Positions 2,907 through 51,368 of a stretch of DNA of 64,000 nucleotides are shown here, one piece after another. A program made the translations under genes and the position numbers. Numbering within the stretch: the stretch's first letter is position 1; the number at the start of each line of letters is the position of its first letter. Source of the stretch: a virus; the IMG/VR virus record IMGVR_UViG_3300045988_137103; one strand, 5' to 3'. Below the pieces are notes generated by a model that searched no databases, was not told the DNA's origin, and worked only from the letters and a program-made list of their open reading frames with translations.

Positions 2907-3383
2907 ATGGGTAAATCTATCAATGTACATGAAGCCTGCGTCATTACAAAAGATGATAAAGGCAACCTCTCCATGGTAGGCAAGGCAAAAGAAGCCCTTA
3001 CCACCTTGAAGAAGAATAAGGTTTCTGTCTGCATTCTTCTCTGTGACAACAAAAAAGATGATGTAGAAAAGTTCCTTAACGATAATAATGTACCTTTCGC
3101 CTCTCTCAGTACCAAGGAGGAGACCGATAAGGATGGCAACACCAAGCATGTTGATCCACCAAAGGCAGATGTAACCATCATGCCAAGTTCCAAGGTCATC
3201 ACTCTTCGAGACGATTGGCAATGGTGCTTGGATGATATTGCCCAACGTCTCTGGGGCGAGAAAAAGAAGGAGAATCCAAAGAGTGAACAACAGCGCATGG
3301 ATGACAGCATGGCTGATTACATACGCTGGGCAACACCAAAGAAAAAGGAACCAGAGAATGCATCTGGTCCTTCTCTCGGATAA
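2907..3383 (+). CDS. Hypothetical protein (158 aa)
   Basis: Protein-like composition. The two overlapping minus-strand ORFs (2846-3310, 2898-3413) are Leu/Phe/Ser/Cys-rich shadow frames. Confidence 0.6.
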   Translation: MGKSINVHEACVITKDDKGNLSMVGKAKEALTTLKKNKVSVCILLCDNKKDDVEKFLNDNNVPFASLSTKEETDKDGNTKHVDPPKADVTIMPSSKVITLRDDWQWCLDDIAQRLWGEKKKENPKSEQQRMDDSMADYIRWATPKKKEPENASGPSLG

Positions 3384-3601: not shown

Positions 3602-6600
3602 CTACTCCATTCCGTTCAACGTTTTTAGCAGCTCCTTTCTGGTATTCCGAATCTCTACCAGTTTGGCAGCATCGTTCGTACCATCCATTTGCTTCTTAGC
3701 CTTATTCATCTTCCTTCTTGCAGCAGAGATAGCCTTTCTAGCCGCAAACAGTCGCTTGTTGGTCTTGCTGTTCTTAAAGGCATTTGCCTTCGCCTTATCA
3801 ACATCCTTCAAACGCTGATACTCCTGATAAGTCTCCATGGTTCCGTTCCAGACGTTCTGTATTCTCCAGTCCTCCGTCACGTCCTCTGCCTTAGCCTTTA
3901 TCAGGTACTTGCTTTCAGCCTTCTCCATTTCCTTCAAGTCTTCATCACCGTTCAGATAACCCTGCACCATGTCCAGAGCCTCCTTCTGGGTGAAAGCCTT
4001 GTAATCACTCTGCGAGAGGAATTTCTTCATCTTCTGGCGCATCTTCTTCTTTTCCGTGATACTCTTGGCAGTATCAAAGCGTTTACTAGCCTCCTGTAAG
4101 GAAGTCACTCCATCGCTCATTTCTGCACTCTCCAGTGCCTTCACCGAACCGATGGCAGCCTTAATCTGAGCCTCAGGATCAATACCATTGCGCTGGCAGC
4201 TCTGATAGGTCATCACCACGCCCTCCATGTCACCGCTCAGGATAAAGTCCTTGAAGTAACTCTGAGCCTTCCATGGAGAGAAGCCCTTAGAAGAAGGGAA
4301 GAAGAAATCAACGGCCTTGAACTCCTTATTCTCCTGACTCGGAATCAGGAAAGGTGCCCAGTACAAAGCATCCTTATAAAGCAGTCCGATGGTCTTACCA
4401 TACTTGCGCTGAATCTCTTGATCCGCATGGCTGGCTTGGAAATCGCTCAGATAGTTTATATCATCCAAGGTCATTCTCACCATAGGGTTAGCCTTACCTA
4501 TCATTCGCTGTACCATAGGTCCAGGGAACTCTAGTTCTCCCTTATGATTGAAAAGGTATTCCGGAACCTCACGGAATTGCTTACCATGTCTCACATACAT
4601 TTCTGTACCATCTTCATATCTGCCTAAGAAGATCTTGCTCTGCTGGCCAAGGCTGTTGCCTCTCATCAGATAGTCATACCATTTTATACCCTCATCACCA
4701 TAAGCCAGTTCATACATACTCTTATAGCTTGGGTTGGTCTTCCGGATCTCCTCTGCCTTCTTGCGCTCCTTCTCCTCGTCCAGGGCACGGAAAGCAGCAT
4801 TGATGCCATTGGCAATACCCTCATAAAATACCATGAATCCGATACCATAACAGAGCAAAGCCGAAATCTGCCTGCTTCTTCTGCCTTCATCCTCCGGTGC
4901 AAGTTCCTTATGTTTGAGCCTCTTGTAATACTGTTTGAAGTTCTCAAAGGTTGCCTCATTCCAGATAGAACCAAATCCGGTTAATGCCAGAAAATGACGT
5001 GTAGTAGAAGCATTCCAGTCTGAAGAAAGAAGAACTCGTCCGGCATAGCGCAAGGTACGATGGCTGGCTCCCAACACATCCCAGTGCTGACCGCCAAACA
5101 TATCGTTTACAAACTGTCCGTCCTCGTCCAAAGCCCGGCTCAGTTCCTCCTCAGTCCAACCCTTCTTCTTGGCACGCTCTTTGGTCTTGTCTGCCCTCAT
5201 ACGATAGGTAGCAAGTTTCAGTCCATCATGTAGGAAATCCCACAAAGCAACATCCATACCCTTATTGATGAGAGAAAGCATCTGCGTTGCCACCTTCAAT
5301 GGCATAGAAGCCTTAGCCACCGTTCCGGAAATTTTATTTCCGTCCTTCAACTTCTTCTGCACCTTTATCATCGCATCGCGCATGTTGTCAAACATGTTCT
5401 GTACATCCGCTGCAGCATAGTCGTTGGTCGCTCCGAACTTCACCAGATGGCTAGCAGCCTCTTGGAAATCCTCAGGATTGGCGAAGCAAGGAAGTTCATG
5501 GTTCTTGGCTGTATCTGCAAAGATATACTTCATAAAGTTGGCCATAGCCTTCTTAGGTCCAAACTCCACCATATTCTGTACCATATAAACCTCCGTCAAG
5601 GCTCCGGCATGGAAACCGCTAAAGCCCAATTCCAGTTTCTTGGCACTAGAAGCAAGCGTATCAAACGTTTTCCAAAATGGGGAAGACTGATAGGTATCAA
5701 ACACAACTCCAAATCTGTCACCGGCACTGGCCTCGCTATAGAGCACCTTTTCGTTGTCAGTGATAGGATTCTTCACCTTCACTTGCTTTGGAGATACATT
5801 ATATACCCATACAGGGCCTACGCCCGGAATCTCAAAGTACTTATATTGCTCCAAATTGAATGGAGCAGAAGAAGAAAGTAGTGGATCAGTTGAAATCACC
5901 TCTCCTTTTTCATTCCTCTCAATTACGTTCAGTCCGGTCAACTCCTGTAACATGGTCTTGTTCGCCCATGCCTCAATATTACTTCTGCTGTAATATGCCA
6001 TCATCTTCGTAATGTCAGTAGTTTTTGGCACAAGTCCGGCATAAACACCTTCCATCAAAGTGCTGATGGTTCGCTTCTTCTCATTAGGGCTCTTCGTGCG
6101 CTGCCTATTCTCCACAAAGGTAGCATACGCCTCAGGATCAGATTTCTCTTTATCCCAAATATGATTTACGTAGTCAACATTATAACCAGTGCCAGCTTTC
6201 AAAGTATGATTATCCATCAACCAGTCGTAGGTATAGTTATACCAGTCACGGATGGAATCAATGGCAGCCTGCATTTCAGGAGAAAGTTCCTTATAATTGA
6301 TACGTCCAGGCACTACCCTCTCTTTTACGAGTTTCAAAACATGCTTACTGAGGATGTCTGTTCCATCACATGGTACAAAACCTTCCTCGCCCTGGTGATT
6401 GGCATTAATTGCCTGAGCCATTTTGCTTGCCACCTCGCTCACAGCCTTAGGATCATCGTATACCTCTATCTCCTTGCCTTTTTTAATCTCTGTATGCTTC
6501 TTTGCTGTCTCGGTAATCAAGTCTGTCACGTATGGCTGGATAGCCTCAACATCAGCTGGCTGAATATGGATATGTCCCTTATCAAAGACACCAGTGGCAT

Positions 6601-9600
6601 TTAAGTTCTGAGCCATGTCACGCAAACGTCTAGGAGCCTCTATTATATAAGGTATAGTCTCGGCAAGTTTTTCTGCCCTGTTTTTCTTTCCCTTGTAATC
6701 AGAAAGCAACTTGTCAAAAACACCGCTATCAGCCATCTTCTCGATTCTGTTCTTCACATCATTGATATAGATGGCATCATCAGCACTAGCCTCTTCCATG
6801 TTCTTTCTACGATGGATAACGGCATGCTTAACGGTCTTTGCTGCACCTTCCTTGCTCACGTCAGTACTGGTCACTTCTGCCAAATCCTGCATCACTTGCT
6901 GCTCCAGTGCATCAGCCTTCGGATTGGTCTCTGCTGGGTAAATCTTACCCTCATACAAGTCCAGATCGGCTTGTTGCTGCTCCAGCAAATCATGTTTGGC
7001 CAGCCAGTCCTCATACTTGCGTTTCACCTCCTCCTGCTTCTTCTTTTCGAAGGCAAACATATCTGGCAAAGGGTCTTCCTGGTCCTTCATGGCTGACTGC
7101 CATTTCTCATATTCATGAATACGATTCATGTAGGCAGCATCCTCTTCACCTTCCATTCGGATAGGCATACCAGTAGGTTCCTCGCCAACAAGGTGGTGGC
7201 GTTCACGCCAGTCTTTATTGAGTTTTGCCCATTCCTTCTTGCCTACTTCATCCTTATCAATGTCGTAGAACATAGGAGGCTCTGGGTTCTCTTTATCCTC
7301 GCGCGCATTCTGCCACTTGCGCCATTCCTGTACACGTTTCATGTACTGAATAGTGCTTTCGCCCTTCTTCTGGCGTGGTTTACCCTTACCTGCACCATCA
7401 CCCAGCGCATCCTTGATTTCAGCATTGCTAGCCTGCTTCATCATGGCTTCCTGCTTCTCCTGAGGCATTTCGTCCCAAACGTGCAGAGCCTTGCCAGCCT
7501 TCATTAGGTAGTATCTCAAATCCTTGTCATTGAGAAGTCCCGGCACACGAACACCCAGCTTCTTAAGCACCTTGATAAGATAATGCTTAATCTTGGTCCA
7601 AAGAGAAAAGTCCTCAGCAGTCTTAGGACCCTCCTCGGCCAAATGAGCGATATACTCCTGCGTTCCCACATTCATGCGGTCAGGGTTCTTCCAGTCCGGA
7701 TCATATTTGTTGGCAAAGTCAATAATCTTGCCTCGAACATCCTTACCTACGGAACGATAAACGAAGTTGGCGAACTTTCTCACGCCATCTTCGCCACCAA
7801 GAAGTACTTCCATACCCTCATGGCCTATCTTTTCATGCAGCACCGTTCTCTCAGCCTCGTTGGCATCAGCACAGTTAGGCAGATAAACATGCACCGTGTG
7901 TGTAGTAGGGTCATACCATCCGGTAGCCCCATTCTTCACATCACTCAGATAAGCATCAGGAACCTCATCCACAGAAGTGTAAACTGTAGCCTCAGCACCA
8001 CCCAGTTTGTTGGCAGTGTTCACTACCCGGTCGCTCACTTGTTTCTGCTTGTCTGCATCCCAGTTGTTCTTGAAGATAGAGCTGCCAAGTCGTGCCAATA
8101 CATTTCTGCCCGACAAGTCATCCTTATTCAGCAGAGGAGCAATCACGCCCTGAGTCAACTGCACCGGAATACCATTACCAATGATGGTATGTGCCAAAGA
8201 TTCCGTCTTAGGCAATTTATAGTCATCGCCCAGTCCGGTAATCCTAGCCAATACCCTGCCATCTGCACGCAATACCTTTCCACCCGGCATGATGATCACA
8301 TCACCACTCTTGGTTCTCAGCGTAGGCAGAATTTCATCCCCATAGGCATGAGGAATCTTGCCATCGGCATAAGCACTACCCATTACATAAAGAGGCTTCT
8401 CCACCTTCTGCCAGTCGATACCATCAACCTTCAGTCTGGCATCCATCCATGGAGCCACACCGCTTTCTTTCACCGTCAGAGTAGGAAGAATATCCTCCAC
8501 AGCCTCTAGCCATCCACCCTTGCGTGGTTGCTTCTTAGGCTTTTCAGGCAGTTCTCCATCCTTCACGGCTCTGACAATTAGTCGCTCCCTGCTGGTATAG
8601 CCTCCAAAATCTGCGGCATTATACACGTCTACATCCCATTTGTAGCCGTTCTTATCCAGCGCCTGGGTGATAATCTTCATCGCCTCAGAGTCCTTGTAAC
8701 CCTTCACGTTCTCGATAGTCACCACTCGCGGTTTCACGGCATCAATGAAGTCGGCAGTGCTCTTGGCAGTCTCCTTGTCAAGCTCCACCTCTCCACTATT
8801 ACTCTTTGCCTGCGAGTAGTTCTTGCATACAGGAGAAGCGTGAAAATACTCTACCTCACCATCAATCTGCTTCACCAGTTCCTTAGGATCCACATCCCTC
8901 ACATCAGCCGTAACAATATGCTGCCCGAAGTTATTGCGATATACACCGCTTATCTTCCGGTCATACTCTACAGCCACCACTGGGTCGATAATGCCCTTCA
9001 ATCCCTCTTCAACCAGTCCACCACCGCTAAAGTAGGTACCTGCCTTCATCAGAGAATCAGGATGCTTCTTCAACTTCTGCTCCAAGATAGGAGATTGCGC
9101 ATTTTTACCGTACACCTTGGAATAATGCACACCATCATTCTCACCTCCTACGATTCTGCCTCTGTTATCGGTCTCCACAAACGGCACACCTCGCTTCTCC
9201 AACTCTTTTCTGAGACTTGGAGTAACCACATTCGAAGGCATAGTGATATTCTTGCCCTTGAACATATCATTGACGATAACATCAGCCACCTCGCTGTCAG
9301 GCACGATACGCACAGGCTTATCCCAACGAGAAAGCACCACTTTGCGCTTGCCTGTCAACTGTCCTTGGATGATACCAGCCTTCCACTCTACTTCGCCCAC
9401 GGCATCCTTGGCTTTATCAGCCTTGTAGCCACTGGTCAGCTCGCTCTTTGGCACCTCAACCTCTACGGTCACGATATTAGGGCGATTCTGAGCCTCGCTA
9501 AACTGGTCGTTCAGTGGAGTGCGAGAAGTATGAAGGTAAGGATTGTAAGCAGCCTTAAGCGATTTACCATTACCCTTGTTTAGGGTAAACATACCCTTAT

Positions 9601-12600
9601 CATCAGCAAGTTCTGGTCGCTCATCTGCCTGTTCCCACTTACCGAGTTCGATAGGTTCCACAAACTTGCCCTTCACCTTTGCAGCCATCGGTGGATAGAG
9701 TTTTCCATCTTCGCCTACCTGCATGGCACGATAAACCTTCACCGTGTCTTCTTTATCCAGCTTCTTGATGGTCTCAGGGTCTTTCACGATGCTATAGCTA
9801 GCATCATTCCCATTCATCACAATCTGCTCGTCACGGTTCACGTCCTCAGTTTCAGATGCCAAGGAGTTTCTGCGCTCCTCGTCCGTCATACCCAAACGCT
9901 TCTCCACATTTCGAGATTCAACTTCACCAGCCAACTTTCTATATTCTTGGTAAGAATCAAAGTCTGTACGCTGGAACCTATCCAAACGGAAACGCTTAAT
10001 GGCATCATCCATACTTCTGTCTGCATAGCCACGTGCGAAGTAGTTGAATCCCTTAATTCGGGTTTCCTTGTCAGGAATGAACTCAGGCATATCCATGTCC
10101 TTATATTCCTGAATAAGGGCTTTCTCTACAGCAGATTGGTTATACTCACCACCCATTTCCTTGGCTTTCTCTTCCAATTCAAAGGCATAGGAACGTGCCT
10201 TCCATTCAACCTTAGCAGCATTGAAATCCCTCTCCACCTGCTCGGGTGTGCCACCATGCGCAAACCCCTCTTCACGCTGAATTACGTGCTGAATTTCATG
10301 ATTCAGAATGCTATTCAGATACTTTAATTCATCCGCATGAATGGTAATAGTCTTTGTTTGTGGATTGTATTCCCCATTTGAAGGCATGTCATTCATTACT
10401 GCATCAGTATGGATTTTAATATTTTTCAACTGAGGATAAGCCTCAAAAAGCTTTGGTGCATCCACAGCATCTTCCAACTTACCATCAGTCCATAGCATAT
10501 CCTCTTCGAAACGTTTAACGATGTTTCCACCACCTACATCGATGGTGTCCTTTATCTTGGCATCAGGCATTTCGTATCTCCACTTGCCATCCACGCCTTT
10601 CTCCCAACCTGTAGCCATCTTGATAACCTTGGCATCCTTCTTTGCCTCTTCCATCTGCTTAGCAACATCCAGATTATCCATGCGGATAGTTCGCTCATCA
10701 GCCTTATCAGCCTCAGCAGCTCCCTTTTCTCCAGCAAACATGAAGCGAATATCGCTCTTGCGAGAATTGAAACGCTTAGAAGGAGGAATAACGTCACCCT
10801 CATCATCATAGGTAACAAGGTCGTTCAACTTTCTATTATTCTTGGCATTCTTGTATTTATACTCCTTGCCATCATCAAAGCCAAACTCGTTTGCGTCATT
10901 ACCATCCCACCACAGTTGAGTAGCCGGAACTTCGTCTTCAATGATACGATATTTGCCTTCCAGTCGGTTCGTTCCGTGCATTTCGGCATATTTCTTAGAA
11001 GGAGTAACCCAGTCACCATTACGCAACTTTCCTTCCTTCACAGAAGTAGGAACAGCACGATAAACCTTTACCTTAACATCCTTCTCGCCATTCTTAATGG
11101 CATCAATAGCCGTATTGATGGCTTTCACAGATTCCAATCCATGAGGAGTGTTCTGCGAATAACGCTCAGGGTGAGAGAAGTAATCATCAGGCTGAGGAGT
11201 GTACCCCAAAGCCATATCCTCCAGGTTTACATCTGAGCCACTGGATTCCCAATCGTCACGTCTCGCCTTGTCGCTTTCATATCCAGGGTTTCTCGGTGCA
11301 GCCCATGCACCTACGCCCTGATATGCGCTTTCGGTATCGTCATATCCCTTGCGTCTGGCAGCCTCATCAAGCATTTCCCTGGCTGTAGCATCATCACCCT
11401 TAGAAAGAGCATCCATATACTGCTTGTCAAGTTTATCATCAGGAATCAAAGAAAGTTCCTCCAAGTGCTTTTTGCGTTTGGCTTCCTCTTCCTCTGCTCT
11501 CTTTCTAGCAGCTTCCATAGCATTACGCTCTGCTTCAACCTGCTTTATTCGTTCCTCTATCATTGCATCAAGGTCACCAAAATTCTCCTTCAAGGCTTCA
11601 TTTATAGGTTTGGTGTACTTAACAACATCCTTAAATGAGAAAATGTTACCTTCATTTACCTGCATCAAGTGACGCTTAATATTGGCTCTGGCACGTGCAG
11701 CCTCAGCAGTAGAACCCTTCTTAACAGCATTGGCATACATTGCCACATCTGCCTCATCTACCCCAAATTGCTGAGATACAGCCTTAATTTTATCCTCCAC
11801 AGATAAATTTCCACCATTTTCCTTGGTGATTTCAAAGGAATTGCGTATCTTTGCATCGCTATGAGGATTCAGGACGCTATCCTTTCCGCTTGGGTTATTT
11901 GCGGATGGAGTTAATGCCGAACCTTGATTCTCGCCCAAGGAATTAGAATCGCCTCTGAAACGATTCCATAGCATTTTTGATTCCGTTAATTCTTTCAACA
12001 ATTTTGAAGGCTCTATTTGATGGGCACTGATTGAAACTTCATCCTCGCCTTGCTTTACGGTGATTGATTCAAAATTCAGAATCTTTGTTCCGTCTACTTT
12101 CTTGAAAGACTTTACAAACAGATACTTGGTCTGTCTTTCTGCACCTTCTTTAGGAGCAGGCTTCTCTAAGATAACATCTGGACGCTCCAAGGTAGGTTTC
12201 AATAGACCAAATCGTTTGATTCTGTCTTCTCTACCAGCCTTTTTATATTGGTTTTCACCTAACTTGATGCTACCTATTGGTGTATTGACACGACCATCCT
12301 TGCCGAAATCCTGTAACCAGTTATCCTCTGTATGTTCGAGGATTCTTTCAGGCTCGGCATTATCAGCCATCTGCTGGCGTAAAGACACAGCTTCGTCCTT
12401 GGTCATTTGACCTTTCAGCACGTTACGTGGGTCCACACCATTAGCCAAGTCTCTCAGCACAAGGTTACGAATATCCTCCAAGGTCATTTTCTTGATGTCC
12501 TCAGGCTTCCACTTGGTGAAGGTCTCCAAAGTCCAATACCAGAACTTCTTCAACCACTCCTTCAACTTATTGATAACACTCAGTTCCTTAGCTGTATCAA

Positions 12601-15600
12601 GCGGATTCTCCTTGATGGCATCCTTAGCCATCTGTTCAAGTATTGCTTCACCATCCTCACCAGTCAAACGAGCAAAAGCCTCATCGCAAATCTCGTCATC
12701 GCTCAGATGCTTATAGTTAGGATCCTTCTTCAAATCGGCAAATAGCTGGGTCTGCATGATGAGTTTATCACCATGCTCTATAAGTTCCGGATTCATGTTT
12801 TTGGCAGCAGTACGCCAAAGATGTTGATACTCATGAATAGGAGTATTAGGATTCAGATGCTCCGCGTTCAGCACAATCTGCTTGCCATCAGTGTAGCCAT
12901 AAACCACACCCTTTCCCTTCAAATACTGCACTCCAGGCTCAGCAACAGCCTTCAACTGATTATCTAACTCAACATACTTATGGAACAAGTCATCAAGTGT
13001 ATCTTGATACTTTTCAAAGGATTTATCCCTGTAGTCAGTCCAAACATCATCTGGAATATCGTTCTCAGAAGATAAACCGTGTTGGTCCATATAGTCCTGC
13101 ATTAACTGATTTTGATACTCTGCTCGCTCTTTCTTCTTGGCATTATAGGAATCCTCGGTTTCTTTAATCTGCTTCTCTAACTCGATTCTCTTATTGAGCA
13201 GAGATTCAGCCTTGTAAGGGTCAAACTCACTAGGAACATCACCCTTCACGTCCTTGATCTGCTCCTCAAAAGGCTTATTCAGATTAAATGCCTTGTAGTT
13301 TCCTATCTTCCAGGCATTGGTATAGTACTTGCGCCACTTCTCCGCTAAGTCCTTCTTTTCAAAGTACTGAGGAGGTTGGTTCGGATTATCCATATTGACG
13401 ATGGCATACTGCTTAAATTTGTCCGGTCTGTTCTTTGCAGCCCAGTCATAAGCTGCCTTGGCCGCCTCCTTCTGCTCAGGAGTCTTGATATAGAAGCGCA
13501 AACGAGGATCATTCAAAAGCATTTCGACTGCCAAATTATCCTGCGCCTCAGCCACCTTCTCCATATCCTCATTGCTAACAACCTTCACAGGGATGCCAGC
13601 CTTCTTAAGCATAGTAGATACAGTATCATAAGCCACCTTCTGCGCCTCCGTCATTTCCGAAGGCTTCACCTCCTTCACATCGCGGTCAAATTTCGCCTGT
13701 TCCTTCTGTACCATAGCATACTCCGCAAAAGGCTTAGTCTTGCGGTCAGAAGACTCCAGCCACTTATCAAAGGTAGTCTTAGGTACAGAAGTAACCTTAC
13801 CAAGTCCCTTCCAGCCCTTGGAGTAGTTGGCAAGATAAGCCTCTGTAGCTGCCTCTTCAGAAGGATAGCCATACATCACCTTATGCTCGTCAAACTCACC
13901 AGTCTCTGGGTTCACTTGGTCAACAACATAAACGTTACCATCAAAAGTATCAAGGTCAGCTGCATCATTGATGAACATATCAATATGATCACCATCAACG
14001 CCAATTTTACCAAGGATATAGCCGTAAGTATCGTGCATGGTCACACTCCAAGGCTTGCCCTGCTCGTCCTTACCGCTTCGAGTCACGCCCTTTGGTGTTT
14101 CTACGGTATAATCGTAGCCACCAAAGGACAAATGACCCTTTTTGTAGTTACCAGCCTTCTTCTGAGCCTCTGTAGGTTCGGTCTCAGTTTCGGCAATGGC
14201 ACTCTTTAAACGTTCTCCGAAGGATGCTTCTTGCGGTAGATGTGAGCCTCGAACAGCTGAGCCTTCGCCAGGTTCCATGCTGCCAGTCTCTTGTCGCCCT
14301 TTGCGTCCGCTATCAGAGCCTTCTCCAATCTCGGACTCAGAAGATGCTTCTCCGTTACCAACTTCTTCGCCTTGGCTATTTCCTTCATCAACTCCTCTCC
14401 GTGAAGAGTCGCTACCCAGGCTACTGCCTCCTCCATATCCTTCTTCATTGCTTCTGTCATCATAATCTGCTAATTCTGGTAAAATTGATTTGACATATTG
14501 TTTGTACTCTCGTTCACGATCCTCAATCTCCATCATACGGTCAAATTCAAGTCCATTGATGTGATCAAGTTCGCTTTCAGGCGGCAAAGATAACTCTTTT
14601 TCGTGAATATACGATTTATATTTCTCAATTTCTGCCTGTCTTTCGATAATTTCTCGCTCTTTCTGTGCTTCGTAATACTCTTCCTCGCTTGAAAGTTCAT
14701 CTTCTGCAGCTGCTATGCGGTTCATCAGAGCCACATTTCTCATTTCCTTCACACAGTCATAAGACTTGAACATATCAAGAAGGGTATTACGAACATCTTG
14801 ATCGGTATATCCCATATCCTGCAAGTTTACAGGAAGGTCATTATATACTCTCACAGCAAATTCGTTAACCGACATACCGGTTCCTTTCTTTGCAATAAGA
14901 TAATTGAACTTATTAGAATCATACCCCTTGCCAATACCAAACTTAAAATTGCTCTTGCCCAACTCATATTGAAGAGATTCTGGATTCAAGCTATGAGGAA
15001 GCAAAGACTCTGATACAGCCTCTTCGAGAGTCTGAGGAGTTAAGTCCATCACATCAACGGAAGCATCCTTATATATTTCATGGATAGCTTTCATATCGTT
15101 CTTCTTCAGCGCATCAGCCACCAATGCCTTGCGTTGCTCTGAAGGTGTCATGCCCAGTTTCTCCATTTCCTGCTTGCTAACTTCCGTTTTGTAGAGTCTG
15201 CTGAGTTTATTAGCCTGAGCCTTCAAACCCTTGGCAGCAACAGACAAATTAGTCTGCAGGGCCTCCAGTTGAGCCTTTGTAGTATTCAATTCCATAAGTT
15301 GGCTAGGGTCCAGCTCTGTTTCACCATTGATATACTGATCCAGCATATCATTCACACCATTTATCTTGCGCTCCACATCCTCCTGGGTATGATAGATGTC
15401 CTTGCGCTGAGAGGTAATATAGTCGGTAGCCTCATCCATAGTTGGATATTGCTTCTTCAATTCTTTATCATCAAGTACGAGCACATGGAAATCATCAGAT
15501 GGCACGATGGCTGATTCATCAACACCAGCCTTCTCTACCTCAGCCTTGCGCTCCTCCTTCATAGCTTTCACCTCATCAGGAGTCATCACACTGTTGCGGA

Positions 15601-18600
15601 TAGTATTCCAGTTCTTGAAACGAGCATCAAGATCTGCAATCTGCTCATTAACCAGACTCAACTCATCCTCCACCTTCTTAGCTTTTTCCGGGTCAAGATC
15701 GGAATTGGTATCAAGCCAGTTCTGATATTCAATAGCAGCCTTTCTCTTGTTGGCAAGTTGCGTTTTGATGTCATCACGGCTGCCATTAACCAGATTCAAA
15801 AGTTTGCCATGGTCTTCCCCAAACTGCTCCTGAAGATACTCAGCCGCCACATTTGGATCTGTATCTTTAGAAGAATAGTCCGGCTGGCCCTCGCTCAGTC
15901 CCACGATGCCATTGGCATAACGCTGTTTCTTATCAGCCTCAGCCTGAGAAACTGCTTTCTGCTCACGTTCATCGTCCTCGGCATCCAAATGCTCATTGAT
16001 TGTGTTGTCGAGCGCATTCTTGCGCCATGCTGCAAACTCTTCTTTAGATAGGGGAAGATAATCTTTGCCATCAGTAAGTACAATCTTTCCGTCCTTGCTA
16101 TATCCGGCAAAGGTCATATTGATATTAGCATCACCCTCCTCCATGGCAACTGTAACCTGGTCATTCGGCTTCAAACCGCTGCCATCAAACTGACTAATAA
16201 ACTGCTGCGCTCTTGCATCCTTCTGCTGAGCCACCGCATTTTCGATGTATTCATCAAGAGAAACAGGAGTGCCTACCTCTTTAATCTCGGCATTAGATAC
16301 CTGCTTAATCATAGGCTGTCCCTGCTCATCAGGAACGACAACAAAGGCTCCACCATATTCGTTAGCCTTCTTCAGGAAGACCTGTTTTCCGCTATCCAGA
16401 GTAGCTGACACGATGTTTCCGTCTTCCGTCTGGTATGGCCAGAGTTGCTGCTTCAACGCCTCACCATAGCCATCATCAGCATGCTGCAGAGCATCAATAG
16501 CACCCTTCTTGGCATCCATAGCCTCCACATACTTACTGATAGCCTCTTTCTGTGCCGGGGTCAGACTGGCACGCTGAGCCACAAACTGCTCCATATCTCT
16601 ACCCTCATTATAGGCATTGGCTACAATATCAGGCATCTTCTCGTTATCAGCAAACGCTCGCTTCAAACGTCCTGTAGCTAAATCACTATTATAGTCGATA
16701 GCCTGCAAAGCCTCAGAATCCCCATTCTTATAGGCATTCTGTCCCATAACAAAAGCATCAGAGCTTGCAACCTTAGGCTCATTTCCTGCACCCTCAGCAG
16801 CAGAGTTTGCAGGGTTTGCAGCAACTTCTGCATCACTCGGAGTTGGTACGGAGTTGGTACGGTCTTGATATGGAGCAGGTTCCTCTGAAACTGGAGGCTC
16901 CTGACCACTAGCAGAACCCTCTACAGAAGCAGGTCCCTCAACAGGAGTAGGTGGTTTTGCGCCATCAACATCGCCCTGCTCTATACGTTTTTTATCATCC
17001 TCTATCTGCTTCATTTCACGTTTCAGTTCAATGGAATTGTAAAGCTCCTTAAGATAAGACTCAACCAAAGGCGCATATTTCTTATCTTTCGACTCCAAAG
17101 CCTTACGAAGTGTACCGCGCGCCACGCCATGGGAATCCTCAAACGTGTTGACAAACTCCCTCATCACAGAACTATTCTCCAGAGCACTGTCATAATAATG
17201 ACGGTAGGCGTTAACCTGCTTCTGCTCCTCATCAGTAAGGATTACACCCTTCTGCTGCTTATCCATGATCTCCTTGATGGCACCAGCATTCTGATGAAGA
17301 TAAACCGCTGCCTTATCCTCATCTGTCAATTTCTCACCCATATTATATTTCTGGGCTGCCTTGTTGTATAAGCCATCAAGATGCTCCTGCGTAAACTCAT
17401 TGTGGAACTCACCTTCCAGCACAGAAGCCAAACCAAGAGTCTTATCATACTCCAGTTTCTTATCTGCTTTCTGAGCCTCATCAAGAGAAGAATACTCCTT
17501 TCTGTCAACAACACCGCCATCCTTGTTCAAAGTTTCGAGATAAACCTTGCCACCATTATCCATTGGTTGCACGATGATGGAATCTACAATAGGCGAGAAA
17601 GAAGAAGGTCGTTTGCCTTCTACAACTGCCATCATCTTAGCCTTCAACACCTCCGGAACACTCTTGTCGTTCATCAGGTCCATATACTTCTGGGTTAACT
17701 GCCCATCAAGTCGCTGAGCATTCTCACCAACCATAGCATACTCCCCGATGCCCATCTTCTCAAAAGCATCACGAAGACCATCATAGCCGAATCTCTTCAA
17801 CTCGGCAATATCCTGATCAGTGAAATCAAACTTCTTGTTAAACTCCCTTGCATCCTTGAATCGGGCATACTTGCCCACAAAACCAGGGAAACCAATAGAC
17901 AAAAGATTAGCACCACTCTCCAAGAAAGTTTCAGCAGCATCCTTGCCAGTAGGCTTGAAATTCGGGTCGTGCGCCATACGCTCCAACAACTGCTGACCGG
18001 TCATAATACCGGAATCCACAACCTTACCACCAATATCAGCCAGAATATTGGTAGCTAAGCCTCTGCCTTTACCTACCATGTTAGCGATTGTTCCACCCTG
18101 CATGATAGCACCTACGGCACTCTGTTTAGCCACTTCGCCCAAAGTGTTGGCAATAACCTTACCCACGGAAGGATTGTAAATCTTGCCATTCTCATCGAAC
18201 TGACCTGTACGATAAATCTCATCAATAGGCTTCGAGATTGCAGACTGACCACCAAAGGTAACAGCACCATGCGCGGCTCCACCCTTCAAAGCCGCGGCCT
18301 TGCTCTTGCCGATAAGCACCTTGGCAGCTCGCTCAGCCATCTTGCGCTCCATACCCTTAGCCATGAGGTCACCAGCCAGTTTACCCTCTGCCTTGGCTAC
18401 CATGCTCTTAGTCAACTTGCCACCTGCGGCTCCCGGCAGCCAATAACTCCAGGCATCACCTGCAAAGGTCAGAGCACCACTAGCTACGTTTTCCCAGAAG
18501 CCCGGCTGATACTGCTGATTGGCAATATCCTCCAGCCAGTTCTGGTAGTCCGTCTGAACAGCCTTGCGAGTAATCTTACCCACAATAGTGTTACCCAAGC

Positions 18601-20032
18601 CATTCTTCCAGATGTACTCAGCACTACCCTTAGGCATCATACCCTTAATCTCCAACTGATCGAGTTCATTTTTAAGAACAGAATTGATCATCGGCTTGAA
18701 CTGCTTAGGATCACTACTCTGAGTGCCATTCAAGCCATATCGCTGCATCACCTTAAATGCCGCATTGCTCATATCATTCAGGAACTCCGGATTCCGGTAG
18801 AGCCTGCCAAACTTCTTCTGCAAACTAGAAAGCACCTTTGCAGGATCCTTGGCCTCGTTTGCCTCATACTGAGCACCAAGTGCTGTACCCAGACGAAGAT
18901 TAGCCGGAATAAACTGGCTTCCTTCCATTCCCTCCGTAAATGCCTTACTGCCTGCCTCCTGAGCCTTGTTGTACTCATCCACTACAGATGGATTCACATA
19001 CTTACTGATAACGCTAGAAAGCGCATCATTGATGTCCTGATTCATCAGTCTGTCCTGCACATGCTCATCATGAGAATAGAGGCGTGTAGCAATACCCTCA
19101 GCGATGTCACGATAGTTCGGGCCATACTTGTTAACCAAACTCTGCACCATAGCTGGTTTCAAGAATTGTCCCACATAGTCATCATAGCTGATACCCATGC
19201 TGTCAGCCTCCTGCTTCAACTTATCCTGCACACCATGGCTATACCATTGTGCTTCGATACTCTTCTCAGCATCCTGCACAGTATCATCAGGCAAAGAAGA
19301 AACAACCTGGTTAGTTACGTCCATGGCTGAACGGTTGGCATATCTGCCCAGAGCAGACTGCACCATCTTAACAGCCTCCTCATTGTTATTGGCAGTACCA
19401 TCAGCTAACAAGTCGGCAACCATATTTTCGAAGTAAGTACCCTGCTTATCCGGTCTCTGCTTCCAGTTCTCCAGATAGTTGGCAAACTTGGCATCCATCA
19501 TGCCTTCATTATTCACCACACCAGTTGGAGTTGTAACAGGAGCCACTTCCTTAGATTCAGGAGAAGCGTGCTGCACAGTACTTTGCGGTTGATTATTGTT
19601 CACACTTGGCTGGTTAGCCTCTTGTGGCTGATTGTCTCCACCAAACAAGCCTGAAACAGTAGAAATCATCTTTCCTGGCATTTCCTTCAATTTATCCACA
19701 AAGTCATTACCAAAGTCTTTCACTGCTTCGGGAACCCTGTCTTTTCCTTCATTAGAAGAAGACGGATGCGCTGAAGGTTGCGCCACCTGCTGTTTTGTCT
19801 CAGTAGAAGCACTCTGATTCGTAGCAGAAGTAGATGGAGCTGGCTCCAACACCATCTTATCAAAGTCTGCCTGTGTTCCTACATCATAACCCATGTTCTT
19901 GGCCTCATTGTAGTACCAGTCACGATCTTCCTTGTTGTTCAAGTCCTTTTTAAAGTCATCATAGCTACCTACTTCATAGCCATTGTTCTTGAACTCATTA
20001 TAAAAATATTGTCTGTCTTGCTCGTCAAACAT
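3602..20032 (-). CDS. Giant polyvalent multi-domain protein (5,476 aa), putative packaged/ejected virion protein
   Basis: Single uninterrupted 16,431-nt ORF. One frame carries a PPase-like module, three zincin-type HExxH/HExxxH motifs, an R-S-ExE-like segment and a full C5-DNA-methyltransferase motif set. All + strand ORFs inside it are antisense shadows. Confidence 0.85.
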   Translation of the reverse strand: MFDEQDRQYFYNEFKNNGYEVGSYDDFKKDLNNKEDRDWYYNEAKNMGYDVGTQADFDKMVLEPAPSTSATNQSASTETKQQVAQPSAHPSSSNEGKDRVPEAVKDFGNDFVDKLKEMPGKMISTVSGLFGGDNQPQEANQPSVNNNQPQSTVQHASPESKEVAPVTTPTGVVNNEGMMDAKFANYLENWKQRPDKQGTYFENMVADLLADGTANNNEEAVKMVQSALGRYANRSAMDVTNQVVSSLPDDTVQDAEKSIEAQWYSHGVQDKLKQEADSMGISYDDYVGQFLKPAMVQSLVNKYGPNYRDIAEGIATRLYSHDEHVQDRLMNQDINDALSSVISKYVNPSVVDEYNKAQEAGSKAFTEGMEGSQFIPANLRLGTALGAQYEANEAKDPAKVLSSLQKKFGRLYRNPEFLNDMSNAAFKVMQRYGLNGTQSSDPKQFKPMINSVLKNELDQLEIKGMMPKGSAEYIWKNGLGNTIVGKITRKAVQTDYQNWLEDIANQQYQPGFWENVASGALTFAGDAWSYWLPGAAGGKLTKSMVAKAEGKLAGDLMAKGMERKMAERAAKVLIGKSKAAALKGGAAHGAVTFGGQSAISKPIDEIYRTGQFDENGKIYNPSVGKVIANTLGEVAKQSAVGAIMQGGTIANMVGKGRGLATNILADIGGKVVDSGIMTGQQLLERMAHDPNFKPTGKDAAETFLESGANLLSIGFPGFVGKYARFKDAREFNKKFDFTDQDIAELKRFGYDGLRDAFEKMGIGEYAMVGENAQRLDGQLTQKYMDLMNDKSVPEVLKAKMMAVVEGKRPSSFSPIVDSIIVQPMDNGGKVYLETLNKDGGVVDRKEYSSLDEAQKADKKLEYDKTLGLASVLEGEFHNEFTQEHLDGLYNKAAQKYNMGEKLTDEDKAAVYLHQNAGAIKEIMDKQQKGVILTDEEQKQVNAYRHYYDSALENSSVMREFVNTFEDSHGVARGTLRKALESKDKKYAPLVESYLKELYNSIELKREMKQIEDDKKRIEQGDVDGAKPPTPVEGPASVEGSASGQEPPVSEEPAPYQDRTNSVPTPSDAEVAANPANSAAEGAGNEPKVASSDAFVMGQNAYKNGDSEALQAIDYNSDLATGRLKRAFADNEKMPDIVANAYNEGRDMEQFVAQRASLTPAQKEAISKYVEAMDAKKGAIDALQHADDGYGEALKQQLWPYQTEDGNIVSATLDSGKQVFLKKANEYGGAFVVVPDEQGQPMIKQVSNAEIKEVGTPVSLDEYIENAVAQQKDARAQQFISQFDGSGLKPNDQVTVAMEEGDANINMTFAGYSKDGKIVLTDGKDYLPLSKEEFAAWRKNALDNTINEHLDAEDDEREQKAVSQAEADKKQRYANGIVGLSEGQPDYSSKDTDPNVAAEYLQEQFGEDHGKLLNLVNGSRDDIKTQLANKRKAAIEYQNWLDTNSDLDPEKAKKVEDELSLVNEQIADLDARFKNWNTIRNSVMTPDEVKAMKEERKAEVEKAGVDESAIVPSDDFHVLVLDDKELKKQYPTMDEATDYITSQRKDIYHTQEDVERKINGVNDMLDQYINGETELDPSQLMELNTTKAQLEALQTNLSVAAKGLKAQANKLSRLYKTEVSKQEMEKLGMTPSEQRKALVADALKKNDMKAIHEIYKDASVDVMDLTPQTLEEAVSESLLPHSLNPESLQYELGKSNFKFGIGKGYDSNKFNYLIAKKGTGMSVNEFAVRVYNDLPVNLQDMGYTDQDVRNTLLDMFKSYDCVKEMRNVALMNRIAAAEDELSSEEEYYEAQKEREIIERQAEIEKYKSYIHEKELSLPPESELDHINGLEFDRMMEIEDREREYKQYVKSILPELADYDDRSNEEGYGGGSSLGSDSSRRGVDEGNSQGEEVGNGEASSESEIGEGSDSGRKGRQETGSMEPGEGSAVRGSHLPQEASFGERLKSAIAETETEPTEAQKKAGNYKKGHLSFGGYDYTVETPKGVTRSGKDEQGKPWSVTMHDTYGYILGKIGVDGDHIDMFINDAADLDTFDGNVYVVDQVNPETGEFDEHKVMYGYPSEEAATEAYLANYSKGWKGLGKVTSVPKTTFDKWLESSDRKTKPFAEYAMVQKEQAKFDRDVKEVKPSEMTEAQKVAYDTVSTMLKKAGIPVKVVSNEDMEKVAEAQDNLAVEMLLNDPRLRFYIKTPEQKEAAKAAYDWAAKNRPDKFKQYAIVNMDNPNQPPQYFEKKDLAEKWRKYYTNAWKIGNYKAFNLNKPFEEQIKDVKGDVPSEFDPYKAESLLNKRIELEKQIKETEDSYNAKKKERAEYQNQLMQDYMDQHGLSSENDIPDDVWTDYRDKSFEKYQDTLDDLFHKYVELDNQLKAVAEPGVQYLKGKGVVYGYTDGKQIVLNAEHLNPNTPIHEYQHLWRTAAKNMNPELIEHGDKLIMQTQLFADLKKDPNYKHLSDDEICDEAFARLTGEDGEAILEQMAKDAIKENPLDTAKELSVINKLKEWLKKFWYWTLETFTKWKPEDIKKMTLEDIRNLVLRDLANGVDPRNVLKGQMTKDEAVSLRQQMADNAEPERILEHTEDNWLQDFGKDGRVNTPIGSIKLGENQYKKAGREDRIKRFGLLKPTLERPDVILEKPAPKEGAERQTKYLFVKSFKKVDGTKILNFESITVKQGEDEVSISAHQIEPSKLLKELTESKMLWNRFRGDSNSLGENQGSALTPSANNPSGKDSVLNPHSDAKIRNSFEITKENGGNLSVEDKIKAVSQQFGVDEADVAMYANAVKKGSTAEAARARANIKRHLMQVNEGNIFSFKDVVKYTKPINEALKENFGDLDAMIEERIKQVEAERNAMEAARKRAEEEEAKRKKHLEELSLIPDDKLDKQYMDALSKGDDATAREMLDEAARRKGYDDTESAYQGVGAWAAPRNPGYESDKARRDDWESSGSDVNLEDMALGYTPQPDDYFSHPERYSQNTPHGLESVKAINTAIDAIKNGEKDVKVKVYRAVPTSVKEGKLRNGDWVTPSKKYAEMHGTNRLEGKYRIIEDEVPATQLWWDGNDANEFGFDDGKEYKYKNAKNNRKLNDLVTYDDEGDVIPPSKRFNSRKSDIRFMFAGEKGAAEADKADERTIRMDNLDVAKQMEEAKKDAKVIKMATGWEKGVDGKWRYEMPDAKIKDTIDVGGGNIVKRFEEDMLWTDGKLEDAVDAPKLFEAYPQLKNIKIHTDAVMNDMPSNGEYNPQTKTITIHADELKYLNSILNHEIQHVIQREEGFAHGGTPEQVERDFNAAKVEWKARSYAFELEEKAKEMGGEYNQSAVEKALIQEYKDMDMPEFIPDKETRIKGFNYFARGYADRSMDDAIKRFRLDRFQRTDFDSYQEYRKLAGEVESRNVEKRLGMTDEERRNSLASETEDVNRDEQIVMNGNDASYSIVKDPETIKKLDKEDTVKVYRAMQVGEDGKLYPPMAAKVKGKFVEPIELGKWEQADERPELADDKGMFTLNKGNGKSLKAAYNPYLHTSRTPLNDQFSEAQNRPNIVTVEVEVPKSELTSGYKADKAKDAVGEVEWKAGIIQGQLTGKRKVVLSRWDKPVRIVPDSEVADVIVNDMFKGKNITMPSNVVTPSLRKELEKRGVPFVETDNRGRIVGGENDGVHYSKVYGKNAQSPILEQKLKKHPDSLMKAGTYFSGGGLVEEGLKGIIDPVVAVEYDRKISGVYRNNFGQHIVTADVRDVDPKELVKQIDGEVEYFHASPVCKNYSQAKSNSGEVELDKETAKSTADFIDAVKPRVVTIENVKGYKDSEAMKIITQALDKNGYKWDVDVYNAADFGGYTSRERLIVRAVKDGELPEKPKKQPRKGGWLEAVEDILPTLTVKESGVAPWMDARLKVDGIDWQKVEKPLYVMGSAYADGKIPHAYGDEILPTLRTKSGDVIIMPGGKVLRADGRVLARITGLGDDYKLPKTESLAHTIIGNGIPVQLTQGVIAPLLNKDDLSGRNVLARLGSSIFKNNWDADKQKQVSDRVVNTANKLGGAEATVYTSVDEVPDAYLSDVKNGATGWYDPTTHTVHVYLPNCADANEAERTVLHEKIGHEGMEVLLGGEDGVRKFANFVYRSVGKDVRGKIIDFANKYDPDWKNPDRMNVGTQEYIAHLAEEGPKTAEDFSLWTKIKHYLIKVLKKLGVRVPGLLNDKDLRYYLMKAGKALHVWDEMPQEKQEAMMKQASNAEIKDALGDGAGKGKPRQKKGESTIQYMKRVQEWRKWQNAREDKENPEPPMFYDIDKDEVGKKEWAKLNKDWRERHHLVGEEPTGMPIRMEGEEDAAYMNRIHEYEKWQSAMKDQEDPLPDMFAFEKKKQEEVKRKYEDWLAKHDLLEQQQADLDLYEGKIYPAETNPKADALEQQVMQDLAEVTSTDVSKEGAAKTVKHAVIHRRKNMEEASADDAIYINDVKNRIEKMADSGVFDKLLSDYKGKKNRAEKLAETIPYIIEAPRRLRDMAQNLNATGVFDKGHIHIQPADVEAIQPYVTDLITETAKKHTEIKKGKEIEVYDDPKAVSEVASKMAQAINANHQGEEGFVPCDGTDILSKHVLKLVKERVVPGRINYKELSPEMQAAIDSIRDWYNYTYDWLMDNHTLKAGTGYNVDYVNHIWDKEKSDPEAYATFVENRQRTKSPNEKKRTISTLMEGVYAGLVPKTTDITKMMAYYSRSNIEAWANKTMLQELTGLNVIERNEKGEVISTDPLLSSSAPFNLEQYKYFEIPGVGPVWVYNVSPKQVKVKNPITDNEKVLYSEASAGDRFGVVFDTYQSSPFWKTFDTLASSAKKLELGFSGFHAGALTEVYMVQNMVEFGPKKAMANFMKYIFADTAKNHELPCFANPEDFQEAASHLVKFGATNDYAAADVQNMFDNMRDAMIKVQKKLKDGNKISGTVAKASMPLKVATQMLSLINKGMDVALWDFLHDGLKLATYRMRADKTKERAKKKGWTEEELSRALDEDGQFVNDMFGGQHWDVLGASHRTLRYAGRVLLSSDWNASTTRHFLALTGFGSIWNEATFENFKQYYKRLKHKELAPEDEGRRSRQISALLCYGIGFMVFYEGIANGINAAFRALDEEKERKKAEEIRKTNPSYKSMYELAYGDEGIKWYDYLMRGNSLGQQSKIFLGRYEDGTEMYVRHGKQFREVPEYLFNHKGELEFPGPMVQRMIGKANPMVRMTLDDINYLSDFQASHADQEIQRKYGKTIGLLYKDALYWAPFLIPSQENKEFKAVDFFFPSSKGFSPWKAQSYFKDFILSGDMEGVVMTYQSCQRNGIDPEAQIKAAIGSVKALESAEMSDGVTSLQEASKRFDTAKSITEKKKMRQKMKKFLSQSDYKAFTQKEALDMVQGYLNGDEDLKEMEKAESKYLIKAKAEDVTEDWRIQNVWNGTMETYQEYQRLKDVDKAKANAFKNSKTNKRLFAARKAISAARRKMNKAKKQMDGTNDAAKLVEIRNTRKELLKTLNGME
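7817..7837 (-). other. Third metallopeptidase-like motif HEKIGHE inside the giant ORF
   Basis: Context AERTVLHEKIGHEGMEVLLGG. Confidence 0.4.
8150..9050 (-). other. C5-cytosine DNA methyltransferase domain inside the giant ORF
   Basis: Motif I YFSGGGLVEEG (about 9017-9031), motif IV HASPVCKNYS (Cys codon about 8825-8827), motif VI TIENVKGY (about 8706-8714), motif VIII GYTSRERLIV, motif X IIGNGIPVQL (about 8171-8182). All lie in the ORF frame and in canonical order. Confidence 0.8.
10286..10300 (-). other. Zincin-type metallopeptidase motif HEIQH inside the giant ORF
   Basis: Context LNSILNHEIQHVIQREEGFAHGG. HExxH followed by a downstream Glu. Confidence 0.5.
10870..11080 (-). other. Candidate ADP-ribosyltransferase-like segment inside the giant ORF
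   Basis: VKVYRAVPTS ... DWVTPSKKYA ... YRIIEDEVP gives Arg, Ser and ExE in the order and spacing of R-S-E ARTs. Weak, motif-level only. Confidence 0.3.
12821..12835 (-). other. Zincin-type metallopeptidase motif HEYQH inside the giant ORF
   Basis: Reverse complement reads CAT GAG TAT CAA CAT in the context NTPIHEYQHLWRTAAK. Confidence 0.45.
13750..14155 (-). other. Inorganic-pyrophosphatase-like domain inside the giant ORF
   Basis: Translation ...NYKKGHLSFGGYDYTV...MHDTYGYILGKIGVDGDHIDMFIND...EFDEHKVMYGY... parallels the family I PPase core (NYGYI...DGDPvDvlV). Confidence 0.5.
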
Positions 20033-24007: not shown

Positions 24008-24270
24008 ATTACCATATTTTTTTGCAACTGTTTTGCAACATTGCATTGCACATGTCCTATTTAACGTGTCAAACGTAAAATTTTAGCACGAAGATAAGTG
24101 CTTATACATCAATACATTAGATATATATAGCTGATATTCAGATAATTATCAAAAACCATGATATAAAATCACAGTTTTAATCATATTACCCTTTATTTAC
24201 TAATACCCTATAATGTAGTGCGCAACTATCTTGCAACACATTGCGATTTATTATTTACTAAATTATTTTT

Positions 24271-51210: not shown

Positions 51211-51240
51211 TACTATTATCTCCCTAACTCTCCTAACTAG

Positions 51241-51368
51241 TGCTGTAACAGGACGAACCCGATTCGAATTGTCAACCTTACCGTTGTTGTTCCGATTGCC
51301 ATTCGAGAAATTCAGATTCCACGCATTCGTGCCAGAATTCTCAACGCACGACCAGTAATTCGTCCGCT
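51241..51368 (-). repeat. DGR template repeat (TR)
   Basis: 128 bp, 113/128 identical to 52006-52133. Read on the minus strand it is rich in AAT/AAC codons at the mismatched positions. Confidence 0.9.

Follow-up and report, generated by a model that had tools for sequence, protein, structure and literature searches.

The stretch of DNA considered here, 64,000 nucleotides (nt) of the IMG/VR virus record IMGVR_UViG_3300045988_137103 and hereafter called the window, carries a single open reading frame (ORF) of 5,476 amino acids (aa) that accounts for a quarter of a phage genome. The window is most of a temperate phage's genome, because portal, capsid, integrase and repressor genes are present, and the contig from which it was taken extends further, since a 728-aa ORF starting at 62210 runs past the end of the window. 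The host is Segatella (Prevotella) copri, and the phage is also present as a prophage in S. copri genomes. We consider it probable that the giant ORF encodes a phage-type polyvalent protein of this ~64-kb temperate S. copri phage, and that the protein is packaged and ejected with the phage DNA. The genes that bear on this reading are as follows.

703..2760, minus strand: P22-type portal protein, downstream of the giant ORF (PF16510, E 5e-33; phrog_156, E 2e-37)
2907..3383, plus strand: 158-aa ORF lying between the giant and portal genes and called in relatives as well
3602..20032, minus strand: the giant ORF, a probable phage-type polyvalent protein of 5,476 aa in a single ATG-to-stop frame of 16.4 kb
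20062..21357, minus strand: 431-aa protein with threonine-rich repeats and a basic tail of PPSRRGGGSKV repeats, in the same position as gp56 of Bacteroides phage BKO1-TP3
21372..21875, minus strand: 167-aa protein with hydrophobic Gly/Ala-rich ends, the first of the gene trio
22544-24046, minus strand: tyrosine integrase of Bacteroidota type, upstream of the trio
25947-26276, minus strand: helix-turn-helix repressor, upstream of the integrase
30201-31307, plus strand: early/replication-region C5 cytosine DNA methylase, stand-alone (PF00145, E 4e-40)
58726-60306: SU10-type major capsid protein

The giant gene is the last of a closely spaced trio, with 14 nt between the 167-aa and 431-aa genes and 29 nt between the 431-aa gene and the giant ORF. 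An earlier note on this DNA, made from the letters alone, had described one uninterrupted 16.4-kb frame on the minus strand, separated from the portal gene only by a short opposite-strand ORF, and this is confirmed exactly.

Related loci were fetched by a mid-gene query with 10-kb flanks that span the whole gene, and the stop-to-stop frame through the match was measured; homologue searches were made region by region rather than with the whole protein. A complete, uninterrupted frame of 4,689-5,935 aa is found in 73 of 80 related IMG/VR loci and at L085-L087 from S. copri. In strain G8 of that species (L087, a complete chromosome) the frame has 5,215 aa, and two S. copri metagenome-assembled genomes (MAGs) hold frames of 5,705 and 5,203 aa. 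Longer frames exceed the fetched DNA; that of L095, a Prevotellaceae MAG, has at least 6,756 aa. Because the lengths differ with module content, these frames are not copies of one assembly error. Two cultured phages also hold annotated single coding sequences (CDSs) of this size.

PQ571269.1 42666-59327: gp55 (XPO94969.1) of Bacteroides phage BKO1-TP3, one CDS of 5,553 aa, from a temperate Bacteroidota phage of 65 kb
MT152150.1 26390-41827 (locus L100): 8P_023 (QIW89234.1) of Pseudomonas phage 8P, 5,145 aa, annotated as 'structural protein'

The length, which had seemed extreme when the window was read by itself, is therefore not exceptional for such proteins, since cultured phages hold these counterparts and family members reach 7,483 aa. 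The longest of them, P0075, lies on a 65.8-kb contig and takes up about a third of it.

In comparisons with three relatives (Nei-Gojobori method), the ratio of nonsynonymous to synonymous substitution rates (dN/dS) is 0.03-0.39 in every 400-codon block, including modules that match no known family. This pattern indicates purifying selection along the whole ORF, as expected of a translated gene. In the same comparisons the blocks differ in dS, from 0.05 to 1.6, a sign of mosaicism through recombination.

Database records call two genes, of about 3,070-3,100 aa and 2,115-2,121 aa, in the close relatives L001-L003 and L004, and shorter frames occur in L009 and L088. The split in L004 is a run of 10 N from scaffolding and can be discarded. 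That in L001-L003 is a single-base deletion (AAA to AA) in a conserved domain: AAGAAATATG is changed to AAG-AATATG at L001:9781-10200, ORF nt ~9040 (about window position 10993), in the part of the protein designated module G below. Two of these contigs, L001 and L003, share a sequencing project (BOND22-1), and the third, L002, was obtained by Logan assembly from another run accession. The deletion could be a genuine frameshifted variant or a shared sequencing error.

The protein can be divided into the following modules, listed from the N-terminus.

19583..20032, minus strand: module A (aa 1-150), with a motif of ~25 aa duplicated at aa 9-27 and 39-57
14633..19585, minus strand: module B (aa 150-1800), N-terminal part of the conserved chassis, shared by 95% of 73 close relatives and by most distant giants
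14228..14635, minus strand: acidic, Gly/Ser-rich low-complexity linker (aa ~1800-1935)
13754..14170, minus strand: InPase (aa 1955-2093), family-I pyrophosphatase-like, polyvalent type (PF18823, E 2e-50, 170 bits)
12923..13696, minus strand: module D (aa 2113-2370), present in 14 of the 245 proteins of the local comparison set
12398..12931, minus strand: module E (aa 2368-2545), mobile, with an HExxH motif (H2400, E2401, H2404) and an invariant downstream Glu
12071..12319, minus strand: PBECR2 predicted RNase domain (aa 2572-2654; PF18810, E 2e-5; 25.0 bits, cut-off 27.1)
10742..11935, minus strand: module G (aa 2700-3097), mid-gene, present in 100% of close relatives and containing an 'R-S-ExE' stretch
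9818..10750, minus strand: module H (aa 3095-3405), LPD23 (aa 3098-3160; PF18838, E 5e-12, 46 bits) followed by an HEIQH module
9083..9820, minus strand: module I (aa 3405-3650), conserved, with YRxM..G.LY.PM..YNPY.H motifs
8141..9031, minus strand: C5 cytosine DNA methyltransferase (aa 3668-3964; PF00145, E 3e-27), the exchangeable cassette of this allele
7391..8110, minus strand: module K (aa 3975-4214), start of the C-terminal chassis, with an HExxxH motif (H4066, E4067, H4071) and an invariant downstream Glu
6878..7402, minus strand: module L (aa 4211-4385), acidic and internally duplicated (repeats at aa 4230 and 4301)
3605..6892, minus strand: module M (aa 4381-5476), family-defining and mostly helical, with an invariant GRYxDGTExYxRxGKQFRE core and a basic tail

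The InPase domain, whose core (YGYI...DGDHIDMF) can be recognized by eye, has the strongest profile support; its match and that of LPD23 both exceed the Pfam cut-offs. The same segment matches residues 638-763 of the portal protein of Pseudomonas phage Pa193 (PDB 9b41, E 9e-20), in which an InPase is fused to the capsid-interior end of the portal; these C-terminal, unmodelled residues are invisible in the cryo-electron microscopy (cryo-EM) map of that portal (PMC11456595). The PBECR2 assignment is supported because the homologous segment of protein P0049 scores 29.9 bits and so passes the cut-off. The Pfam families InPase, LPD23 and PBECR2 were all defined in the polyvalent-protein paper itself, which gives InPase and PBECR2 as restricted to the phage type (PMC5512222).

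The C5 methylase match spans profile positions 7-319 of 324, and an alignment with M.HhaI finds motifs I, VI, VIII and X intact (FSGGG, ENV, SRERL and GNGIPV). Motif IV (aa 3733-3740) reads SPVCKNYS, that is, S-P-V-C in place of P-C: the catalytic Cys is kept and the Pro is shifted by one position. The SPVC form is retained in 24 of 29 relatives, and one relative has the canonical SPC.

Most of what the earlier note had read in the frame holds up. The duplicated N-terminal motif is present at aa 9 and 39 and is conserved in BKO1-TP3 gp55 (module hidden Markov model (HMM), E 9e-19), the duplicated [YM][KN]R-type module is present at aa 4230 and 4301, and the methylase motif series is complete, if atypical in motif IV. 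Among the enzyme modules, profile searches bear out the InPase, LPD23, the C5 methylase and, near threshold, PBECR2, and they lend nothing to an ADP-ribosyltransferase or to a peptidase fold. The ADP-ribosyltransferase had been suggested by the R-S-ExE-like segment (aa 2984-3054), which is part of module G. The segment has no Pfam match at E up to 0.1, an unfiltered HMM of the ART-PolyVal domains (PF18760) of 26 relatives scores -19.9, and hhalign comparison of such a domain with modules G and I gives a probability of 0.1-0.2%, so this identification was rejected. Authentic ART domains of relatives are located in segments that are not homologous to the window protein, some of them at a swap site of sister phages that is described below. 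A PHROG family, phrog_2579, matches aa 2947-3057 within module G.

Modules E, H and K each contain a short zincin-like motif. In module H the motif is HEIQH..Q..EGF, in which H3245, E3246 and H3249 are invariant. Among diverse homologues the motif residues are conserved in 52 of 52 sequences for H2400/E2401/H2404, in 24 of 24 for H3245/E3246/H3249, and in at least 80 of 84 for H4066/E4067/H4071, and in modules E and K the invariant Glu lies ~50-60 residues downstream of the motif. Judged from these residues, the three modules are putative metallopeptidases. The invariance of the residues thus agrees with the three zincin motifs noted before, although the third is HExxxH, not HExxH, and a peptidase fold has no Pfam or PDB support for modules E and K: diverse members of both match no peptidase or other family in Pfam scans (the polyvalent peptidase model included) or in profile searches of PDB sequences, and no Pfam peptidase family matches any part of the giant protein. 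Nor did blastp detect internal paralogy among the three modules. Metallopeptidases of polyvalent proteins number one to five per protein, are interspersed among other domains, include the HEXXXH form, and have been proposed to act in processing (PMC5512222). Module K is also found in the helicase-type polyvalent proteins P0057 and P0058.

About two thirds of the protein, ~3,500 residues in modules B, D, E, G, I, K, L and M, has no Pfam match, LPD models included. Module B, which contains a Gly/Ala-rich amphipathic stretch at aa ~520-720, has no Pfam, PHROG or PDB match; module D matches no Pfam family; and module I has no match in Pfam scans of diverse members or in profile searches of PDB sequences.

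Module M defines the family. An exhaustive HMMER search with aa 4381-5476 against 1.84 billion representative proteins recovered 519 clusters at E up to 1e-3, 172 of them at E up to 1e-30. With few exceptions the module is located at the extreme C-terminus, and many of its carriers are 4,000-7,483 aa long. It belongs to no PHROG family, and the C-terminal 1,177 aa have no tblastn match in 50,697 deposited phage genomes. The last 76 aa of the giant protein are 28% Lys plus Arg. The hydrophobic segments previously attributed to the C-terminal region were overstated: the whole 5,476-aa protein has a single strongly hydrophobic 19-mer, which does lie in this region, at aa 5056-5077.

An AlphaFold2 model of the C-terminal region from 16 sequences had a predicted local distance difference test (pLDDT) score of 56, too poor for a Foldseek search of the PDB. 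With 45 diverse sequences, the ~900-aa fold of module M was modelled at pLDDT 80.5 and a predicted template modelling (TM) score of 0.69; it is mostly helical, with one small beta subdomain. This model has 19 matches in BFVD at E up to 1e-3. The best (E 4e-14 to 3e-11, TM 0.43-0.50 over 750-940 columns) are to the terminal pieces of uncultured-phage proteins named 'Large polyvalent protein associated domain-containing', and others are to a protein of Cellulophaga phage phi19:3 and to helicase-type polyvalent proteins. As modelled, the M fold thus recurs at the C-terminal ends of many other phage polyvalent proteins, without an experimentally characterised relative. A link of module M to those structural proteins of Cellulophaga phages that proteomics supports was sought in another phage, phi46:3, whose gp111 and gp120 show no sequence similarity to it.

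Two observations concern the end of this module. In ~12% of close relatives (L035, L036, L046, L050, L056, L076, L077, L079 and L081) the last ~275 aa of M are undetectable and a different C-terminal end is present, and P0048 and P0050-P0052 share only the last ~100 aa of module M, at 31% identity. This suggests that the extreme C-terminus is a separable unit.

The architecture of the family was derived from 73 complete close relatives mapped on the window protein and from ~150 distant members probed with module HMMs. A conserved chassis consists of the N-terminal motif pair of module A and of region B through the InPase, and, at the other end, of modules K, L and M. The centre between these ends varies, spanning roughly 400-3,000 aa, and P0070 (3,707 aa), the shortest of the complete members, has little besides the chassis. 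The N-terminal end varies too, with at least three N-terminal types among the close relatives. In the 73 close relatives a swap site between modules G and K holds cassettes of 90 to 941 aa in about 20 length classes, and otherwise near-identical phages differ in the cassette found there. According to Pfam, the alternatives are a C5 methylase, ART-PolyVal with LPD3, Kinase-PolyVal, PBECR3 or MuF_C, in each case with or without LPD23. MuF_C, a PBECR domain, is found only as such an alternative cassette, in relatives such as L005. Distant relatives have the same modules in other orders. What is new at the level of the family is this layout of a chassis with a payload slot, the size and breadth of the M family, and the amount of conserved sequence that has no Pfam assignment.

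The InPase, LPD23, the near-threshold PBECR2, the portal-phage context and the mosaicism of the architecture together support the view, already taken in the earlier note, that the giant protein is a large new member of the described polyvalent class. Proteins of this class exceed 2,000 aa, combine 2-15 domains, and occur in phages with portal-terminase packaging or in conjugative elements (Iyer et al. 2017; PMC5512222). They are predicted to travel with the DNA (PMC5512222). In the phage considered here, the giant protein would be made late, along with the portal and the two small proteins encoded upstream, and a few copies would be incorporated into the procapsid. It would then be expelled with the DNA through the portal and tail channel, possibly after first being cut by its own metallopeptidase-like modules, and its effectors would act in the new host cell ahead of any phage gene expression. 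The methylase might shield the incoming DNA from restriction, and the RNase and pyrophosphatase might blunt RNA- or nucleotide-based defences or clear pyrophosphate, while the chassis would provide packaging and translocation functions.

Packaging and ejection are suggested by the position of the gene beside the portal gene and by analogues, namely gp47 of phage phi24B, the portal-InPase fusion of Pa193, the virion RNA polymerase (vRNAP) of phage N4, and the 'structural protein' of phage 8P. Accommodating a few copies in the capsid is physically plausible, because by a hand estimate a protein of ~600 kDa amounts to well under 1% of the volume that 64 kb of DNA fills when packaged. The 431-aa upstream protein is a candidate for a co-packaged or ejection protein as well.

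Several points weigh against this reading. The support for packaging, both for the giant protein and for the whole M-module family, comes entirely from gene position and analogues, and Pfam scans of the whole protein detect no MuF (Phage_Mu_F) or other recognised head-incorporation domain. A Foldseek search of the PDB with the module M model finds no match (best E 0.84), and in BFVD the similarity of the model to T7-type 'Internal virion protein D' is weak (E 0.05-0.12, probability ~0.3). The metallopeptidase assignment of the HExxH and HExxxH modules is at the level of motifs only, and the PBECR2 match falls just below the Pfam cut-off (25.0 versus 27.1 bits). The Val that precedes the catalytic Cys in motif IV means that methylase activity is not assured, as far as alignment can tell. 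Finally, the phage has a separate stand-alone C5 methylase, so the embedded enzyme is not its sole route to self-protection.

Some of these points would fit a protein that is never packaged and acts in anti-defence or host takeover inside the infected cell or lysogen, as many stand-alone anti-restriction proteins do, its adjacency to the portal gene being either incidental or a reflection of late expression that pre-modifies progeny DNA. The Pfam scans detect no capsid-targeting or MuF domain, the operon begins right after the integrase gene, which is a common site of accessory genes, and methylation of progeny DNA before packaging would protect it equally well. Moreover, some polyvalent proteins are known to have been captured by hosts and not to be delivered (PMC5512222). 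Nevertheless, the order of small, medium, giant and portal genes, on the strand of the capsid genes, is conserved between Segatella and Bacteroides phages, and reports of InPase and PBECR2 come solely from the virion-linked, phage-type class (PMC5512222). InPase domains are fused to portal proteins in other phages, phi24B gp47, the closest experimentally examined analogue, is a virion protein, and the stand-alone methylase is already available for intracellular use. We therefore regard a purely intracellular role as rather unlikely, though it fares better than the other alternatives.

A role mainly as an ejectosome or conduit protein, like T7 gp16 or the N4 ejection proteins, has a lower probability still. 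Here the giant protein, together with the 167-aa and 431-aa proteins, would form a trans-envelope channel of a short-tailed virion, and its enzyme modules would be passengers. The row of small, medium and giant genes by the portal gene does recall T7 gp14-15-16; the ends of the small protein are Gly/Ala-rich and hydrophobic; regions B and M, both large and conserved, do not look enzymatic; and the same role has been proposed for phi24B gp47 (bioRxiv 10.64898/2026.04.10.717836). The resemblance of M to internal virion protein D points the same way, but at E 0.05-0.12 and a probability of about 0.3 it is not significant, and solved ejectosome proteins in the PDB are not matched. One strongly hydrophobic segment in 5,476 aa is little for such a channel, and a short tail is assumed. 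This role also overlaps with a packaged polyvalent protein rather than excluding it.

The last alternative, in which sequencing or assembly errors, or a fusion in decay, account for the continuous frame and two or more genes are the natural state, draws on the two-gene calls in L001-L004 and on the shorter frames in L009 and L088, and is refuted for practical purposes by the 10 N and the 1-nt deletion behind those calls, by uninterrupted frames of differing module content in 73 of 80 viral loci and L085-L087, by the single CDSs of 5,553 and 5,145 aa in cultured phages, and by purifying selection on every block of the ORF.

Beyond the packaged polyvalent protein itself, the family layout invites a more tentative proposal, which we put forward as less probable than not: region B and modules K-L-M might together form a dedicated delivery chassis of a kind not described before, capable of loading itself into the capsid and of threading through the tail, and the G-K site might be a payload slot that is exchanged by recombination. 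If so, the payload slot would be exchanged among co-circulating Segatella phages, chassis and slot would correspond, in phages, to polymorphic-toxin systems, with host defences as the target, and the 519 M clusters would rank among the largest uncharacterised effector-delivery families of gut phages. The payload differences between near-identical phages point to a live arms race with host defence systems. One chassis that carries a methylase, kinase, ADP-ribosyltransferase or RNase payload constitutes a natural experiment, and a culturable relative is at hand in BKO1-TP3. The family could thus test three long-standing and seldom examined claims about polyvalent proteins, namely their packaging, their self-cutting by peptidase modules, and their action before phage gene expression.

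Further features of the phage concern its other genes. The stand-alone methylase has no significant sequence similarity to the methylase domain of the giant protein; the two presumably differ in specificity or timing, and their presence fits, without proving, a division of labour in which one is delivered and the other is expressed. The 167-aa protein is 31.6% identical to BKO1-TP3 gp57 (E 1.6e-14), and neither the 431-aa protein nor the 158-aa ORF at 2907-3383 has a match in scans of the Pfam and PHROG families. A terminase gene was not identified, and the packaging system was read from the portal gene and the SU10-type capsid protein. Promoter and terminator scans around the operon found nothing above chance, with a tool that has no Bacteroidota promoter model. 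A 968-aa early-region protein (39509-42415, plus strand) matches phrog_32516 (E 3e-120), a PHROG without an assigned role, and no Pfam family.

The window also contains a complete diversity-generating retroelement at 49939-52776. Its reverse transcriptase (RT; 49939-51210, minus strand) matches phrog_1423 (E 1.6e-80) and RVT_1 (E 1e-18), and the 128-nt template repeat (TR; 51241-51368) adjoins the RT gene. The variable repeat (VR; 52006-52133) lies at the 3' end of a 258-aa ORF (52000-52776, minus strand) among tail genes, and all 15 of the 15 mismatches between TR and VR are at template adenines. The giant gene was considered as a target of this retroelement and rejected.

A megablast search of the locus against deposited phages gave no match. 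No publication describing the giant gene came to light, and the 'Quimbyviridae' paper mentions neither polyvalent nor giant proteins. The best PHROG match of the giant protein is to phrog_10089, 'DarB-like antirestriction', at aa ~1944-2160 and profile positions 876-1103 of 4,647. The defining parts of DarB in the polyvalent-protein literature are an N6-adenine methylase and a helicase. The PHROG match covers the InPase stretch only, Pfam scans of the whole protein detect neither a helicase nor an N6-adenine methylase family, and the methylase of the giant protein is a C5 cytosine enzyme, so the DarB-like label was rejected. Helicase modules are carried by the sister proteins P0057 and P0058, which share module K. 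A likeness to the P1 DarB/Dar system lies in the proposed role, in that P1 packages in its head DNA-modifying proteins that protect the incoming DNA from restriction.

Phage N4 ejects its ~3,500-aa vRNAP together with two other ejection proteins (PMC13434306), and so resembles the proposed system in having a giant encapsidated protein with two smaller ejection partners. The N4 vRNAP has been counted as a polyvalent protein, and a metallopeptidase region is needed for its encapsidation (PMC5512222). In contrast to vRNAP, the giant protein has no RNA polymerase module, and its module M has no fold match to solved structures. The closest experimental model of the proposed mechanism is phi24B gp47, likewise a large polyvalent protein of a temperate phage. 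This 2,811-aa protein (LPD5, LPD1, LPD38 and MuF-C) is abundant in virions by proteomics and invisible to cryo-EM, and a role as an ejection protein inside the capsid has been proposed for it (bioRxiv 10.64898/2026.04.10.717836). It is half as long as the giant protein and has other Pfam domains, and the two are likened by description, not by sequence.

Pseudomonas phage 8P, a cultured phage with a 63.8-kb genome, likewise encodes more than 5,000 aa in one CDS. Its product 8P_023 shares the LPD23/HEIQH-type module (31% identity over aa ~3120-3289) and detectably no other module, and phage 8P differs in host and in genome context, a holin gene following its giant gene. BKO1-TP3 is much closer. 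It is a cultured temperate gut phage, with relatives of gp55 in BF1-TP2 and BS-TP4 (PMC12694917), and it has the same gene order of repressor, integrase, 159-aa, 371-aa, giant and portal genes. Its gp55 shares module A (E 9e-19), the B2 part of region B (E 7e-12), the InPase (E 4e-79) and module K (E 4e-48). It differs in that B1 and B3 are not detected, the last ~1,000 aa have no detectable similarity to M, and the host belongs to another genus. The protein was automatically annotated as 'DarB-like antirestriction', and the gene is not discussed in the paper on the phage (PMC12694917).

The broadest likeness is to the class of Iyer et al. as a whole, which includes the mosaic protein jhp1044 of a Helicobacter prophage. 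The giant protein shares with this class a length of more than 2,000 aa, the joining of unrelated effectors, InPase, PBECR and LPD domains, interspersed HExxH/HExxxH modules, a link to portal-type packaging, and module swaps among orthologues. It differs in being more than twice the size threshold of the class and in belonging to a close clade with a fixed chassis and one dominant exchange site rather than free shuffling of modules.

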